A DNA stretch of 24,982 nucleotides, taken from a virus (Duplodnaviria; Heunggongvirae; Uroviricota; Caudoviricetes). Both the position numbers and the translations under genes were made by a program. The stretch's first letter is position 1, and every line of letters starts with the position of its first letter. Below are positions 1,331-24,982 of this stretch, one piece after another. The stretch lies in IMG/VR virus record IMGVR_UViG_2551306526_000003; one strand, given 5' to 3'. Under the pieces are notes generated by a model. It searched no databases, was not told the origin of the DNA, and saw only the letters and a list, made by a program, of their open reading frames with translations.

Positions 1331-1345
1331 GCTTTTTTATACTAA
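1331..1345. other. attL: attL core (B-O-P') of lambda-type prophage; 15-bp common core GCTTTTTTATACTAA with bacterial B arm to the left and phage P' arm (about 1346-1418) to the right
   Basis: Exact lambda att core; right flank GTTGGCATTATAAAAAAGCATTGCTTATCAATTTGTTGCAACGAACAGGTCACTATCAGTCAAAATAAAATCATTATTTGATTTC matches the lambda P' arm running into the int 3' end; left flank is ybhC-proximal host DNA. Confidence 0.9.
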
Positions 1346-5519: not shown

Positions 5520-6275
5520 TTAAACTGCTAGTTGCAATTGCATTTCAAAGCGGTCGCGTTGTTCACAATACGCAAGAGAACCAGGGCTATTGTGTGCCTC
5601 AATCCGTTCTACCATTAATGCTGCGCGTGTCTCTTTACTTGCAGGTGCATAAGCCCCAGACCAGGCTTTATCAATACCGATGTTTCGAGCGACGTTCGTA
5701 CTATCTGCGCTGGCTAAGGGTAATTTTGTGAATATCAGCGGATTTAACATGCGCAATCCATGTAGTTTCGTAACCGGCTGACCATGCCCATCAACAATGT
5801 GACGAATCAGGTCTTTCATTCTGGCTACCGCAAGAGTTGGGCGCTTTACGTCATAGTCGCCACAACTACCGATAGCCACTCGCGGAAACTCATTGCACAA
5901 ATGAATAAATCGCGCGTCACTTTCATTCATGTGCCACACTGGAACGCCAGCTAGTTTTCCGTGAGGCCACTCATTCAGAAGCGCATCATTTTCCTCCTCT
6001 CCGCCATCAATAATATCCGGGATAATGGCAAAATCGAATCCTGGGTGATTCTTCCAGCGAGCAACAAACTCGTAGTAATCGCTCCAGTCGATTTTGTTTT
6101 TGCCAGCTGCTTTCCAGGCGGTGAATGCACCGTTGTCCAGCGCGAACGACTGACAGTATTCAGCCGCGAGATTGATCTGGCCTGAATGCGCAAAACTGAT
6201 AAACGCATGTCGCCCTTTCCATGCTCTCATTGCGCACGTATCAGGAGTAATAGGCCCACCGTGGTAGTGAATCAT
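5520..6275 (-). CDS. Hypothetical enzyme with a TGT-like (tRNA-guanine transglycosylase / DpdA-like) motif pattern; 251 aa from the SD-preceded ATG at 6275 (track ORF extends to 6317)
   Basis: Strong SD AAGGAGAGTGAG-ATG at 6275, 1 nt after the upstream gene stop. Motifs (numbered from 6275): LD47NGAF vs Tgt TDSGGFQ; D81FAIIPD87 vs DIVMIFD; LHGLRM vs YLMGVG; SAD191STNVARN vs FDCVMPTRNARN, with compatible spacing. No CxCxxC...H zinc site. Motif-level only. Confidence 0.4.
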   Translation of the reverse strand: MIHYHGGPITPDTCAMRAWKGRHAFISFAHSGQINLAAEYCQSFALDNGAFTAWKAAGKNKIDWSDYYEFVARWKNHPGFDFAIIPDIIDGGEEENDALLNEWPHGKLAGVPVWHMNESDARFIHLCNEFPRVAIGSCGDYDVKRPTLAVARMKDLIRHIVDGHGQPVTKLHGLRMLNPLIFTKLPLASADSTNVARNIGIDKAWSGAYAPASKETRAALMVERIEAHNSPGSLAYCEQRDRFEMQLQLAV

Positions 6276-6276
6276 C

Positions 6277-6684
6277 TCACTCTCCTTTGATGCGAATGCC
6301 AGTAGCGCGGATTGCATCGATGACTTCAGAAACTTTGTATGCCATTACCGTTTGGTAATCATCGTGAAAATCTGTTCGATGAAGCATGCTGCTACGTTCC
6401 GGGAGCAGTATTTCCCGCGCTTCCAGTTCTGCAATGCGCTTTTTTGCTGCTTCCAGTTCATCCAGTAATTCCAGCACGGTAGCCGGATTAGCCTTGGCAA
6501 CAAAATCCCGGACTGGCTTACAATCAATCTCCGCAATGGGTTGATTCGATGTGTAGCCATGCTGTCTTGTATAACTACCGTGACGAATAACGAAAAAATC
6601 ACCATTTATTTTTTTAGCCTGCCACTTATCTTCACCGGCTTTCTCTGCCGCTTCACGCAGTGCCTGAGAGTTAATTTCGCTCAC
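6277..6684 (-). CDS. Ead/Ea22-like family protein, 135 aa, GTG start, coiled-coil segment
   Basis: Segment ANPATVLELLDELEAAKKRIAELEAR typical of Ea22-like proteins; GTGA start/stop overlap with the upstream gene; SD GAGAGG. Confidence 0.5.
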   Translation of the reverse strand: MSEINSQALREAAEKAGEDKWQAKKINGDFFVIRHGSYTRQHGYTSNQPIAEIDCKPVRDFVAKANPATVLELLDELEAAKKRIAELEAREILLPERSSMLHRTDFHDDYQTVMAYKVSEVIDAIRATGIRIKGE

Positions 6685-6902
6685 TTCGAACCTCTCTGTT
6701 TACTGATAAGCTCCAGATCCTCCTGGCAACTTGCACAAGTCCGACAACCCTGAACGACCAGGCGTCTTCGTTCATCTATCGGATCGCCACACTCACAACA
6801 ATGAGTGGCAGATACAGTCTGGTAGTTCAGACGACGCATTTTTATTGCTGTGTTGCGCTGTAATTCTTCAATTTCTGATGCTGAATCAATGATGTCTGCC
6901 AT
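6681..6902 (-). CDS. TraR/DksA-family C4-type zinc-finger protein, 73 aa
   Basis: Cys cluster THCCECGDPIDERRRLVVQGCRTCASC (CxxC ... CxxC) and size typical of phage TraR homologues. Confidence 0.75.
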   Translation of the reverse strand: MADIIDSASEIEELQRNTAIKMRRLNYQTVSATHCCECGDPIDERRRLVVQGCRTCASCQEDLELISKQRGSK

Positions 6903-6950
6903 CTTCCATTAATCCCTGAATTGTTGGTTAATACGCTTGAGGGTGAATGC

Positions 6951-6978
6951 GAATAATAAAAAAGGAGCCTGTAGCTCC
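6951..6978 (-). terminator. Intrinsic terminator on the minus strand (stem GGAGC/GCTCC, then U-tract) inside the leftward pL-type operon; candidate tL-type site
   Basis: Hairpin ggagc-ctgta-gctcc at 6964-6978; plus-strand A-run 6951-6963 gives UUUUUUAUUAUUC on the leftward transcript. Confidence 0.5.
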
Positions 6979-7000
6979 CTGATGATTTTGCTTTTCATGT

Positions 7001-7216
7001 TCATCGTTCCTTAAAGACGCCGTTTAACATGCCGATTGCCAGGCTTAAATGAGTCGGTGTGAATCCCATCAGCGTTACCGTTTCGCGGTGCTTCTTCAGT
7101 ACGCTACGGCAAATGTCATCGACGTTTTTATCCGGAAACTGCTGTCTGGCTTTTTTGATTTCAGAATTAGCCTGACGGGCAATGCTGCGAAGGGCGTTTT
7201 CCTGCTGAGGTGTCAT
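7001..7216 (-). CDS. Hypothetical early-left protein, 71 aa (MTPQQENALRSIARQANSEIKK...); track ORF runs to 7282, but the shorter start at 7216 is preferred because of ATGA coupling
   Basis: In the position of lambda orf61; the ATG at 7216 overlaps the stop of the small ORF 7213-7296. Confidence 0.5.
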   Translation of the reverse strand: MTPQQENALRSIARQANSEIKKARQQFPDKNVDDICRSVLKKHRETVTLMGFTPTHLSLAIGMLNGVFKER

Positions 7217-7296
7217 TGAACAAGTCCCATGTCGGCAAGCATAAGCACACAGAATATGAAGCCCGCTGCCAGAAAAATGCATTCAGTGGTTGTCAT
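7213..7296 (-). CDS. Candidate small hydrophobic single-TM peptide, 27 aa ([27 protein letters not shown]), translationally coupled on both sides
   Basis: ATG at 7296-7294 overlaps the TGA of the upstream ORF (7293-7295); its own TGA (7215-7213) overlaps the ATG of the 71-aa ORF; strongly hydrophobic core. Below the track size cut-off. Confidence 0.35.
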   Translation of the reverse strand: MTTTECIFLAAGFIFCVLMLADMGLVQ

Positions 7297-21400: not shown

Positions 21401-21780
21401 TCCGTAAAATGAACGGATACACCTACACGCTCAGGGAAAACGGGATGCCTTATGCTGGCGTTATTGCACAGGAAGTAATGGAGGCGATACCAGAAGCTGT
21501 GGGATCGTTTACTCATTACGGTGAAGAGTTGCAGGGACCAACGGTTGACGGCAATGAATTACGTGAAGAAACACGTTATCTGAATGTTGACTACGCCGCC
21601 GTGACGGGGTTACTTGTTCAGGTCGCCCGTGAAACAGATGGTCGCGTTACCGCGCTGGAAGAGGAAAACATAACGCTACGTAAAAATCTGGCAACAGCAG
21701 GCACCCGGATCAGCACTCTGGAAAATCAGGTAAGCGAACTGGTTGCACTTGTCCGGCAGTTAACAGGAAGCGAACATTGA
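18474..21780 (+). pseudogene. stf: Side tail fibre (stf) interrupted by a +1 frameshift in an A6 tract (19401-19406). Lambda Stf-like N-terminus with Ala/Ser-rich SETNA repeats, central GGTG fibre repeats, C-terminal intramolecular-chaperone domain
   Basis: Frame A 18474-19409 (MAVKISGVLKDGAGKPVQNCTIQLKAKRNSTTVVV...) stops at TAG 19407-19409; the repeat pattern continues seamlessly in frame B (…KNSEAAAKSSETNAKASETN…) to 21780. C-terminus ...SDRDLKDDILVISDATKAIRKMNGYTYTLRENGMPYAGVIAQEVMEAIPEAV... fits the S74 auto-processing chaperone domain as I recall it. Confidence 0.8.
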
Positions 21781-21829
21781 TATCCTTCAAGCCCTGAAGG
21801 AGGCTGTTCCCGGTACGTTCAGACTGTTG

Positions 21830-21960
21830 TTGGGCTGGAGATCGCAACGGAGGAAGAAAACTCGTTGCTGGAAGCCTGGAAAAAGTATCGGGTGTTGCTG
21901 AACCGTGTTAATACAACAACTGCACCGGATATTGAATGGCCAGTAGCACCTATAGGGTAA
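21830..21960 (+). pseudogene. tfa: 3' remnant (about 43 codons) of a tail-fibre assembly gene (tfa); no start codon
   Basis: ...[42 protein letters not shown] matches the conserved Tfa C-terminus; frame opens immediately after the stf stop. Confidence 0.6.
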
Positions 21961-22820
21961 ATTCGTAATGATTACCTAAATACGTTATTCTTTTGTTCAA
22001 AAAGTGATTTTGCTATAGGTAGGGAGTATGTTCTTGGATTAAGAATAAAAAATCGCCATGAAAGAGCTTCATGGCGAGTACATAAACGTACAAAATGTGA
22101 TGAAAGTAGAGTGGCGTAAGCCACTATATTAAGATATGACAATAGCGAAGAAAAGTAAATAACATTTTATGGACGTTTAATTGTTAATTATAAAAACTAG
22201 AGTGCCCGATATTGTTTATCTTGCTTTAAAATAATGTACTCAAACCAAATTTTTGAGCTAAAAGCTCAAATAATATAAATGCAATGATAATGTTTAATAA
22301 GACAATTAGCTTGCTTTGTATTTTCATTTCGGAATACTGTTAAGTAACTTTGATGACCCTAACAATAGATCGGAATTTTCTTAGAGTCAATGGTCAATGT
22401 TTTTGCTTGCAAAGCAAATGTTTTGGTGGTTATAAGTTGTCTTAATATAGTCACGCATGCAACTTGTTCCATGCGGAGATTAAAGATTGGAATATAACGC
22501 GAAGATGGAATTAAATTACATTTGCAATAACCAATTTATTATTACTCAATAATTACCGATATTATTATTGTAAATTAATCATTAGAGTGCAAAAAGAAAT
22601 GTAACGGCAAAATAAGAGGACGATAGCTGAGAAAAAAGCGTGCTTTCCCAATCTGGGGCAAATCACGTCTGAATGACACCTGAAAACAGGTGGTAGCCTC
22701 AAGAAGGCTTGGAATATTCTTCTTTAATGTTATGTAATTCATTGATTTTTCGTGTACGATTTTAAGACATTTATTCCAAGAAAAATTTTTAACTCTTTGA
22801 TTTTTCGACTCTGTATCATC

Positions 22821-22881
22821 GGTCTCGAAAACCGGAGTAGGGGCAACTCTACCGGGGGTTCAAATCCCCCTCTCTCCGCCA
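22821..22881 (+). tRNA. Orphan 3' partial copy (61 nt, anticodon loop through CCA) of tRNA-Ser(CGA) (serU-type); not a functional tRNA; likely att-site remnant
   Basis: GGTCTCGAAAACCGGAGTAGGGGCAACTCTACCGGGGGTTCAAATCCCCCTCTCTCCGCCA matches the 3' two-thirds of E. coli serU as I recall it; upstream sequence does not encode the acceptor/D-arm. Confidence 0.75.
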
Positions 22882-23465
22882 CTTTATCAATGACTTATCT
22901 CCCGACTTCCCGCCTTGCTTTTCCTAAACAGAACAATCGTAGAATATTCTTGAAGGGTTAGATCGTCACTGTTTTCTGTTCGATACTGTGACATTCAGCA
23001 CTTGATTCGCTATGGATCTGACAGGAAGGTTTTGAGCGAAAATTTGCAGTTATTCAGTTGTTTTCTTATCGGTCACCATTATTCTTTTAGACATTGATCC
23101 TACAAAGCTGCCGCAAAGTTGGTGGTGGGAACTGAAGTTGCGTAGAGAAGGGGTCAATACCCGGAGGCAAACATGGGCTGGCAAAAGTGTAGCGGTATTA
23201 GGCGCAGCTATTTAGCCTAGTTATGTTTTATGAAAACTTGATATCATATAAGTGTCTTACTTATTGGCTGTAAATAAGTTTTTCCTAAGGAATTGTTTCT
23301 TGAGTATCATTTGTAACTGTAACGGAATTTATAATCCTTTGCTTTATTGTTACGGTATTTTTTATCACACCCTATTTTTTATGTGGTTTTTTATACTGAA
23401 GTTTGGCAAAGTGAACTTTATATGCATATACTTCATCCTGGTTTCAGTTAAGTTGGGTGGATGAT

Positions 23466-24209
23466 ATGGCAACTACATGTTCAGTTATATTGATTTTGGA
23501 GTCCTTTGATGTTTATTTCGGAAAAGAGAGTGTGTTTCTGGAGAGAGGTTCATCTGTACTTGTCGACTCTAGCTCTAGAGATTTTTTCCTGACATATCCT
23601 GAAAGAGTGATAGTGGCGGATTTTGGCGCTGAGTTTATTAGTCGCTATTTGAAAGCTAATAACTTAAGGGATATTTCTGATTGTAGGGAATATCCATCTT
23701 ATTTAAAAATAAACTTTGCTGACTTCAGTTTAATTAAAGGATTAATTAGTTGGGCTAATCACTGTGCTGAATACATAGAAATTTTTGATGAGTCTATTGC
23801 TTTTACATGTCTCTCTGCATTTTCTTCTGAAAAACAATTTGGAGTATTTCTGTTTGAATGTTTGAAAAGCACAGGGGCTAAAGTTAAAACGATTATTCAT
23901 ACGGATTTATCTGCACCATGGCGTCTTAAGGATATATCATCAAGATTATATCTCAGCGAAAGTTTACTAAAGAGGAAATTGAAAGAAGAGGGGGTATCAT
24001 TCAGTAAGATCATACTTGATGAGAGGATGCAAATGGCTGAATATTTACTCAGCACTCGTTGTTATCCTATTAGTAAAGTAGCTAAGGTCTGTGGTTATGC
24101 CAGTGTTTCATACTTTACTTATGTATTTAGACGTTATTTTGGTGTTTCTCCAAGTCAATACTCTCAGAGCAGTTCAGAAAGTAAAATTCTTACTCACCAG
24201 GGAATCTGA
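23466..24209 (+). CDS. AraC/XylS-family transcriptional regulator (GadX/AppY/Rns-like subgroup), 247 aa from the SD-preceded ATG (track start 23457 is a GTG)
   Basis: C-terminal HTH signature ...ISKVAKVCGYASVSYFTYVFRRYFGVSPSQY and SLLKRKLKEEGVSFSKIILDERMQMAEYLL; AT-rich flanks. Confidence 0.8.
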   Translation: MATTCSVILILESFDVYFGKESVFLERGSSVLVDSSSRDFFLTYPERVIVADFGAEFISRYLKANNLRDISDCREYPSYLKINFADFSLIKGLISWANHCAEYIEIFDESIAFTCLSAFSSEKQFGVFLFECLKSTGAKVKTIIHTDLSAPWRLKDISSRLYLSESLLKRKLKEEGVSFSKIILDERMQMAEYLLSTRCYPISKVAKVCGYASVSYFTYVFRRYFGVSPSQYSQSSSESKILTHQGI

Positions 24210-24213
24210 TCAT

Positions 24214-24718
24214 TGTTCTTGCCCCCTTATTTCCAGACAGGGGGTGTATCTTAAGTTAACGTTACCCGCTGACGTCGATATTCTCGCGGAGAGCGATAAC
24301 CCAACGCACTGTGCGGATGGTTTTCATTGTAATGTTCGATCGCCACTGCAAGATTATGCAATGCCGTTCTTACATTCGGTTTCGGCATGAACGCGATGTA
24401 GTCTTCCTTCATCGTTTTCACGAACCTTTCTGCCATTCCATTACTCTGAGGACTGCTGATTGCCGTTGTGCAGGGCTCCAGATTCAACTCTCTGGCGAAC
24501 TGCCATGTTTCATGCGCTCTATACGCTGAACCGTTATCTGTCAGCCACTGGATGGACTGTTCCGGTACTTTATCGCCAAAGCGTTTTTCTATCGCTCCTA
24601 ACATGACATCCTGCACTGTCGCTTTATCGTAACCTCCCGTGCTTGCGGCCCAGTCTATGGCTTCACGATCGCAACAGTCCAGGGCGAACGTAACACGCAG
24701 TTTTGAATCGCCACGGGT
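24214..24718 (-). mobile_element. 3' fragment of an IS2-related IS3-family element (orfB C-terminal about 155 codons plus terminal inverted repeat); 5' part missing
   Basis: orfB-frame reading [76 protein letters not shown]...[15 protein letters not shown] is about 65% identical to IS2 InsD; terminus TTGCCCCCTTATTTCCAGACA resembles the IS2 end; homology stops at about 24712. Confidence 0.65.
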
Positions 24719-24766
24719 TTAACAGACACCTCAGAGTCATTTAAGATGGCTTAAAGAGAGGTGCCC

Positions 24767-24915
24767 ATGAGCGGTAAGCGTTATCCCGAAGAGTTTAAAA
24801 CTGAAGCAGTCAAACAGGTTGTTGATCGCGGTTATTCTGTTGCCAGCGTTGCAACACGTCTCGATATCACCACCCACAGCCTTTATGCCTGGATAAAGAA
24901 GTACGGTCCGGATTA
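24767..24915 (+). pseudogene. 5' fragment (about 50 codons) of an IS3-group orfA (HTH transposase N-terminus), different from IS2; truncated
   Basis: MSGKRYPEEFKTEAVKQVVDRGYSVASVATRLDITTHSLYAWIKKYGPD is a typical IS3-family OrfA N-terminus; the expected leucine-zipper continuation is absent. Confidence 0.55.
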
Positions 24916-24982
24916 CTCCACTTTTTCATCAAGCCAATCCGCCCACCACTGCATCATTTCTCTGCGCTTATCGAAATACTGA
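24913..24982 (-). CDS. C-terminal 22 codons of an unidentified minus-strand gene entering from beyond the window end (...QYFDKRREMMQWWADWLDEKVE*)
   Basis: Open frame to the window edge with stop at 24913-24915; not recognised. Confidence 0.25.
   Translation of the reverse strand, partial: QYFDKRREMMQWWADWLDEKVE

Follow-up and report, generated by a model that had tools for sequence, protein, structure and literature searches.

Lambda bio and lambda gal are examples of specialised transducing phages, in which aberrant excision has brought flanking host DNA into the phage genome. Two proteins of Escherichia coli also belong to the background of this work. PatE, which is Z0321 of OI-8 in O157:H7, is an activator of acid-resistance genes (PMC10877973), and YncL is a stress-induced inner-membrane peptide whose overproduction depolarises the membrane and condenses the nucleoid (PMC12542507). 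The DNA considered here is a viral stretch of 24,982 nucleotides (nt) from IMG/VR (record IMGVR_UViG_2551306526_000003), referred to in its whole length as the window. Towards its end an AT-rich "spacer" runs into an orphan 3' fragment of serU, the gene of transfer RNA (tRNA)-Ser(CGA). The segment from 21961 to 23159, which also takes in the DNA beyond that fragment, is very probably the transplanted attR (the right attachment, or att, junction) of a lambdoid phage that integrates into serU, carried today as phage cargo together with a candidate accessory gene resembling yncL.

The original prediction had described the fragment as a 61-nt piece of a serU-type tRNA. The assignment to serU holds, as nt 29-90 of K-12 serU are matched at 100% identity, beginning on the 5' side of the anticodon stem and ending with the CCA, and only the length needs correcting, to 62 nt. 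ARAGORN predicted no tRNA in the window, as had been expected with only 62 of the 90 nt present, and called the intact serU of HCP5S3_I2 (in L016), which served as the control. A complete tRNA-Ser(CGA) cloverleaf cannot be formed by the fragment, as it lacks the 5' 28 nt. Because of this loss, and because the cognate integrase is absent at the window locus, the fragment is now inert.

Where the fragment came from can be seen at native serU loci. A query made of window 22200-23159 joined to the native continuation towards zinT was covered end to end in 131 of 5,426 complete E. coli genomes. In these, the same spacer, fragment and flank make up the right end of a prophage, so the proposal that the fragment is the distal att copy of a serU-integrating element was correct. 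The order in HCP5S3_I2 is mtfA, intact serU, int, a 46-kilobase (kb) lambdoid prophage, J, lom, stf, tfa, AT-rich DNA, the 62-nt fragment, the flank and zinT, and the spacer DNA, taken from 21835, is colinear with the right end of this prophage at 98.7% identity. Integration of the serU phage takes place by a crossover within the anticodon stem-loop region of the gene. The phage brings its own copy of the tRNA 3' part at the int end, and the 62-nt part of the host is left at the tail-fibre end, where it adjoins the AT-rich terminal DNA of the phage in serU lysogens. In the stem of the variable arm, the rebuilt serU at the HCP5S3_I2 attL (L016, 1515-1604) has a compensatory replacement of the host A-U pair by G-C, and this G-C pair marks the tRNA half donated by the phage. 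Since the attR and the window copies both have the host-type A...T pair, the fragment is the displaced 3' part of the host gene. Sequence comparison places the crossover in the interval from tRNA nt 29 to about nt 46 and indicates that the "spacer" separates no two elements and is the right end of the serU phage itself. The variable-arm change is also a handy marker of the crossover interval, and as the serU allele of the HCP5S3_I2 lysogen is altered, lysogens express a slightly different tRNA-Ser(CGA).

The last part of the spacer behaves as an att arm (Table 1). It is shared with the prophage that M7424 holds in its native serU, which is otherwise different from the window-type serU prophage, and phage SerU-LTIIb is 93% identical over window 22704-22881. 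Two 18-nt direct repeats, 55 base pairs (bp) apart, sit at the position expected of arm-type sites and are therefore candidate binding sites for the integrase; exact copies of the 11-mer TTGATTTTTCG occur only at both repeats, in the window as in L016. The window junction thus has the tRNA 3' segment, with a serU-phage terminus on its left and native serU flank on its right. The partner attL with its cognate integrase is missing, and the other end of the prophage is the lambda att core at 1331-1345. With no such partner, and with native serU elsewhere, the junction is a displaced fossil and not an active prophage boundary.

The host DNA behind the fragment carries information on its own history. 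In essentially all E. coli, the native serU locus contains a match to the 339 bp that start at 22821. Fragment and flank together (22820-23159) are 97.1% identical to K-12 and 97.35% identical to the native locus of strain ACN002, and alignments that include the phage arm reach 99.1-99.3% in strains lysogenic at serU. The window copy therefore came from another lineage. ACN002 itself is 100% identical to the window over this region and has an unoccupied native serU (zinT-yodB-serU-mtfA); an intact serU with an adjacent integrase had been expected in the genome, and it was found intact, with no integrase beside it.

Over its whole length, the window matches E. coli APEC O78 and ACN002 at 99.96-100% identity. 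By sequence comparison it starts with the end of ybhC, followed by an att core, int and xis, and the full order is ybhC, lambda core, int xis ... stf tfa', spacer, serU', a gene for an AraC-family regulator, insertion sequence (IS) remnants, a lambda core with one mismatch, and ybhB bioA, the primes denoting remnants. The partner core (L006, 27950-27964) lies about 225 bp beyond the window end, adjoining ybhB-bioA, and the DNA before it is presumably a lambda P arm, by its likeness to the published lambda attP. The arrangement, length and position of int and xis are those of phage ev099, in which int likewise codes for 356 amino acids (aa). A lambda att core stands at each end of the prophage, which shows that its integration site is the lambda site at gal-bio and not serU. 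Spacer and fragment are internal to this prophage, about 2.3 kb from its own attR.

The block also exists outside chromosomes. In the deposited phages ev099, mEp332 and PhiR70_1, two of which were isolated on laboratory E. coli hosts, the DNA from 21835 to 24982 is colinear with the window at 99.1% identity (99.0-99.6% for the spacer) and sits between tfa and a lambda-type int of 356 aa with xis. This argues for imported phage cargo, not for a scar made at the window locus. In all three phages, the block occupies the dispensable region between tfa and attP/int and is linked to a remnant of an IS630-family element and to patE, and the defective gal-bio prophage of the window has the same arrangement. 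Taken together, the sequences indicate that the scar was formed at serU in another strain and then moved as phage cargo.

Several steps can be envisaged for this transfer. In an earlier host, the right end of a serU phage and the 278 bp of chromosome beyond it would have been picked up by one of two routes, an aberrant excision as for lambda bio or an illegitimate or IS-associated recombination, and an IS-associated deletion may then have trimmed the captured block. Homologous exchange in the tail-fibre region could have brought it into phages that use the lambda att site. The join between flank and IS630 remnant at 23159/23160 falls inside the IS and is thus an illegitimate (deletion-type) junction; the identical junction is found in OI-8 of O157:H7 and in ev099, mEp332 and PhiR70_1, and the serU'-IS630' join is present in roughly 524 genomes. 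A native serU followed by the IS630'-patE module was seen in 0 of 5,426 genomes, which argues for one capture event followed by spread. The same count gives no support to independent captures, which a module lying behind native serU would have allowed.

The spacer was predicted to be AT-rich, which is borne out by a G+C content of 0.29-0.33 over 21900-22800, against 0.42-0.62 in the upstream tail-fibre gene. It was also correctly described as free of open reading frames (ORFs) of 60 aa or more wholly inside 21961-22820, the sole frame of that size to touch the region being a 69-aa GTG frame (22752-22961) that passes through the tRNA fragment and has no family match. The description as non-coding is accurate as far as long ORFs go and is unsafe in view of a conserved ORF of 33 aa on the minus strand. 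The three inverted repeats that had been reported are all present: CGCCATGA/TCATGGCG at 22054-22061 and 22069-22076, TTGAGCT-aaa-AGCTCAA within the 33-aa ORF at 22253-22269, one base off the position first given, and TTTGCTTGCAAAGCAAA at 22402-22418. As a class they do not exceed chance, with 2 terminator-like sites against 1.1 +/- 1.3 in shuffles. With Rfam 15, no family reached the gathering threshold over 21961-22881, and at E<=1 there were only tRNA-derived partial matches on the fragment. The records of ev099 and PhiR70_1 annotate short spacer frames as hypothetical proteins (22575-22742, 22359-22472 and 22739-22882, all on the minus strand), and some RefSeq genomes place a "capsid protein" pseudogene on the att arm or the tRNA fragment. 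PHROGs and Pfam gave no match for any small ORF of the spacer, including the 55-aa and 37-aa frames; as none has a family match, these hypothetical proteins, and the capsid pseudogene with them, are probably spurious calls. The left 563 bp of the spacer also occur 3' of tfa' in a prophage beside a truncated ydfJ gene, and mosaic breakpoints at 22503-22558, 22639 and 22709 among about 60 related copies fit frequent recombination in the spacer arm.

The 33-codon ORF is a candidate small-protein gene. The NCBIfam model of YncL, NF000537, matches its product with E 1.3e-5 and 25.0 bits over 28 of 30 positions, and BLASTP aligns it with K-12 YncL without gaps from Met1, with 11 of 28 residues identical. 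The similarity score of 60 compares with 20.2 +/- 4.1 in composition-preserving shuffles, none of 20,000 of which reached 60, and hhalign against a profile of 10 chromosomal YncL orthologues gave a probability of 95.5% (E 1.6e-8). By these alignments, the peptide resembles YncL from end to end beyond what amino-acid composition would give. The frame is also conserved: a search with flanking non-ORF sequence alone brought up 47 viral contigs, and every one of them has it intact. Among some 55-60 copies, 7 of 102 ORF sites vary (6.9%) against 91 of 461 in the flanks (19.7%; Fisher p=0.0013), and the variation falls mostly on third codon positions, with 5 of the 7 variable sites synonymous against an expectation of about 20% (P=0.0045). 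In strain A37, an independent copy has 3 synonymous changes and 1 replacement. Two protein searches added little. A tblastn search of the phage collection with the peptide was empty although ev099 and others have the identical ORF. This is taken as an artefact and not as a sign of absence, the likeliest causes being the low-complexity filter and the shortness of the query. A scan of 1.84 billion representative proteins, in which similarity of the YncL level cannot reach significance, returned only the peptide itself and a frameshifted variant.

Putative signals for expression surround the ORF (Table 1). The -10 hexamer of the minus-strand promoter-like site is invariant in about 55 copies; promoter-like sites are not enriched in the region (6 against 6.7 +/- 2.2 expected) and so are weak evidence. 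The hairpin downstream is the first inverted repeat described above, and both halves of its stem (22054-22061 and 22069-22076) are invariant. Promoter-like site, 33-codon ORF and intrinsic terminator may together form a minus-strand unit, a candidate accessory ("moron") gene of the phage. Its predicted single-helix peptide would insert in the inner membrane, where it could lower the membrane potential as overproduced YncL does.

A number of observations speak against parts of this account. The NF000537 score of 25.0 bits lies under the curated equivalog cut-off of 35 bits, so the product is not a YncL equivalog and is at most a diverged paralogue. The selection test rests on 7 variable sites in closely related copies. 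The ORF has no Shine-Dalgarno sequence, which counts against efficient translation, and the motif AAGGTGG is present in 24 of 24 chromosomal yncL orthologues. The ORF matches no PHROG or Pfam family and is unannotated in RefSeq and in the phage records. As for the capture step, aberrant excision would fit as well as recombination followed by deletion, and the position of the right junction inside the IS630 remnant implies that later IS-mediated events erased the original joint.

The missing Shine-Dalgarno sequence, the lack of annotation and of a PHROG or Pfam family, and the AT-rich, H-NS-prone nature of the region would all suit a chance frame whose conserved core acts as RNA or DNA, either as a small RNA (sRNA) or as AT-rich DNA bound by H-NS, and the 317-nt minus-strand RNA indeed folds better than shuffles (z-score -4.4). 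The similarity to YncL, however, is end-to-end and not driven by composition, and the variation in the ORF is of the kind expected of a coding frame, mostly at third positions with 5 of 7 sites synonymous. Moreover, the hairpin inside the ORF (the second inverted repeat) is broken by the variant A24D without compensation, and no Rfam family reaches threshold. A chance frame is therefore judged unlikely, and a coding, YncL-like gene is the reading retained.

The occurrence of the block in O157:H7 raises another question, namely whether the displaced serU fragment is still in use. In OI-8/CP-933H (Sp1), the DNA corresponding to window 22819-24687 (serU', flank, IS630', patE and an IS3-family remnant) is 99.2% identical. 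The block lies there at thrW in a different defective prophage, however, whose left arm is a LEM-3-like GIY-YIG module and which has neither the AT-rich spacer nor the YncL-like ORF. In strain 8368 (L002), the serU'-flank-IS630'-patE-IS3' block, window 23160-24703 and its surroundings, occupies 5999-7865, and as a whole it is common to OI-8, the window prophage and the three phage genomes at 99.2%. The ectopic fragment might on this evidence remain a secondary attachment or recombination site, at which serU phages land in, or swap arms with, prophages carrying patE. In OI-8 the left arm meets the fragment precisely at its first base, and an arm of this type is the genuine right end at native serU in 3-5 genomes. 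As IS630'-patE never stands behind native serU, at least one arm exchange must have taken place at an ectopic copy. A precedent exists in Sp10, which integrates into the attR of Rac (PMC2669165). Against this, RecA-dependent recombination within the shared 340 bp accounts for the arm swap without an integrase, and no complete prophage sits at the ectopic site in any genome examined. Continuing use of the site is judged unlikely. The O157:H7 junction was also considered as proof of integrase activity at the ectopic site and was rejected as such, homologous recombination in the shared 340 bp being sufficient.

The LEM-3-like module has a distribution of its own. It is found 3' of tail-fibre assembly genes in 817 genomes. 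The last 13-19 nt repeat the anticodon stem-loop of serU, CGGTCTCGAAA(A)C, and the DNA beyond them is unrelated, as in L012 4195-4225 (ST131, in a prophage near ssrA) and L013 4195-4215 (GSH8M-2). From its sequence, this end looks like the core of another serU-directed att site at non-serU loci.

The original prediction went further than naming an att copy and supposed that a second integrative element had been integrated at this very spot, leaving its distal att scar in situ. The fragment has the exact form of such a copy, from anticodon stem to CCA, and IS and "integrase core" remnants lie 1.4-2 kb downstream. It is contradicted by the nature of the locus, which is the lambda site and not serU and holds no serU 5' half, and by the native serU, which is intact 1.2 Mb away. 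The fragment, in addition, adjoins 278 bp from the downstream region of native serU, the entire block occurs in phage genomes, and the "integrase core" remnants are IS3/IS2 transposase pieces and not a tyrosine recombinase. A scar made in place is thus highly improbable. Scarcely tenable is the notion that the resident phage or its ev099-like relatives integrate at serU, with the fragment as their attP core: many temperate phages do carry a 62-64-nt serU segment as attP (Klebsiella and Citrobacter phages, and Salmonella ST64B at 84%), but the window prophage is bounded by lambda cores at gal-bio and has an int of the 356-aa length seen in ev099, the fragment is followed by host flank (the B' side) and not by a phage P' arm and int, and it has the host-type variable-arm pair.

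Table 1. Coordinates of the features of the window, with the basis on which each was assigned.
Feature	Position	Strand	Basis
lambda att core (attL) of the defective prophage	1331..1345	+	exact GCTTTTTTATACTAA; 0/100 shuffles match
tfa', C-terminal remnant of tail-fibre assembly gene	21829..21960	+	annotated pseudogene in APEC O78 and ACN002
Spacer, AT-rich right-end DNA of serU-integrating lambdoid phage	21961..22819	+	G+C and colinearity with native serU prophage
Terminator-like hairpin and T tract	22043..22077	-	11-pair stem, 5 G-C, then TTTTTTATTC; ~150 nt downstream of ORF
YncL-like small membrane protein candidate, 33 aa, MKIQSKLIVLLNIIIAFILFELLAQKFGLSTLF	22226..22327	-	NCBIfam, BLASTP, shuffles, hhalign, conservation
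Promoter-like site TTGACT, 17 nt, TATTGT	22362..22390	-	consensus scan 9/12; ~35 nt upstream of ORF
serU att P arm, common to different serU lambdoid prophages	22625..22819	+	99% vs last 196 bp of M7424 prophage
Two 18-nt direct repeats, 55 bp apart: TAATTCATTGATTTTTCG and TAACTCTTTGATTTTTCG	22735-22752 and 22790-22807	+	repeat search
Displaced host 3' part of serU, tRNA-Ser(CGA) nt 29-90; attR core and B' side	22820..22881	+	62/62 nt as in K-12 serU
Host DNA normally 3' of serU (towards yodB/zinT), 278 bp	22882..23159	+	homology to native loci ends at 23159
IS630-family element, last 55 bp	23160..23214	+	92.9% match to transposase gene end and ~22 bp beyond
AraC-family regulator, PatE orthologue	23466..24209	+	245/247 identical to O157:H7 protein at thrW locus

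The regulator gene at the end of the block has YdeO and GadX as the best NCBIfam relatives of its product. Upstream of it lie the remnant of IS630 and the serU flank that was transplanted with it, and just 5' of patE lies the best promoter-like site of the region (23403-23432, plus strand; TTGGCA, 18 nt, TATACT, 10/12 matches).

The resident prophage is defective. At 15763-17743 two truncated genes have been fused, one for the large subunit of the terminase and the other a J-like tail-tip gene, and these truncations mean that nearly all head and tail genes have been deleted. The fusion is followed 3' by lom, the side tail-fibre gene and the tail-fibre assembly remnant ending at 21960; at the position of this remnant ev099, mEp332 and the native serU prophage have a full-length tfa. 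A lambda cIII thermoregulator RNA element at 8750-8808 on the minus strand (88.5 bits) is the sole Rfam match in the window at the gathering threshold. An OmpC-like porin gene (10135-11217, minus strand) stands between a remnant of the quuD antiterminator gene and the lysis genes, and bor is located 3' of the latter. Below threshold, the Rfam family IS009, a candidate sRNA family of E. coli, matches 21720-21920 with 89.7 bits (E 1.4e-20), the gathering score being 117. As the matched DNA comprises the tfa remnant and the last part of the tail-fibre gene, the model may largely describe a recurrent prophage tfa segment.

For the most part the locus is ordinary phage mosaicism, with a history that is well resolved. 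Two things are modestly new: a candidate gene resembling yncL is borne by phages, and a single fossil att/patE block recurs behind two different phage ends. The gene, with its 33 codons, is unannotated in about 800 complete E. coli genomes and at least 3 deposited phage genomes, and such a paralogue offers a cheap way into the function of a small-protein family. The block offers a natural case, and one that can be dated, of host DNA that has become fixed in lambdoid phages in circulation, and it links the PatE of OI-8 in O157:H7 to a mobile block in at least 3 deposited phage genomes. There is a practical side as well, as orphan tRNA fragments are unreliable markers of local integration when they can be made at one locus in one strain and be carried in a phage that integrates elsewhere; callers of prophage boundaries and islands that depend on tRNA fragments would set a false boundary at 22820. 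A bolder idea, rather doubtful at present, is that the spacer is a working accessory module with a membrane YncL paralogue and that the fossil attR is at the same time a landing pad for arm exchange. If so, the paralogue would tune the membrane potential or stress state, with lysogenic conversion, superinfection exclusion or lysis timing as possible outcomes, and the landing pad would account for one patE block behind two unrelated phage ends.

Compared with the known systems, the window junction is built like the attR junctions that tyrosine integrases leave in tRNA genes of the anticodon-loop class, with phage arm, tRNA 3' segment and host flank in that order, and it differs from them in being away from serU, unpaired and inside the genome of another phage. 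The phage peptide and YncL (b4598, 31 aa) are of similar length, each with a single hydrophobic helix, and have in common the frame M-x-x-x-S-K/R-x-x-V-L-x-N...A..LF.L...K/R-F-G. Chromosomal YncL, however, is 84-94% identical across Escherichia, Citrobacter and Intestinirhabdus, whereas the phage copy is only about 39% identical to it, lacks the AAGGTGG site and is confined, among the copies found, to phages and prophages of E. coli, where it lies downstream of tfa. With lambda bio and lambda gal, the block shares a hybrid att site and adjacent host DNA in a phage genome, on the tail-fibre (b-region) side. In contrast to those phages, it carries only 278 bp of host DNA and no host gene, its joint has been replaced by the junction with the IS630 remnant, and it has become fixed in naturally circulating phages that have a different integrase.

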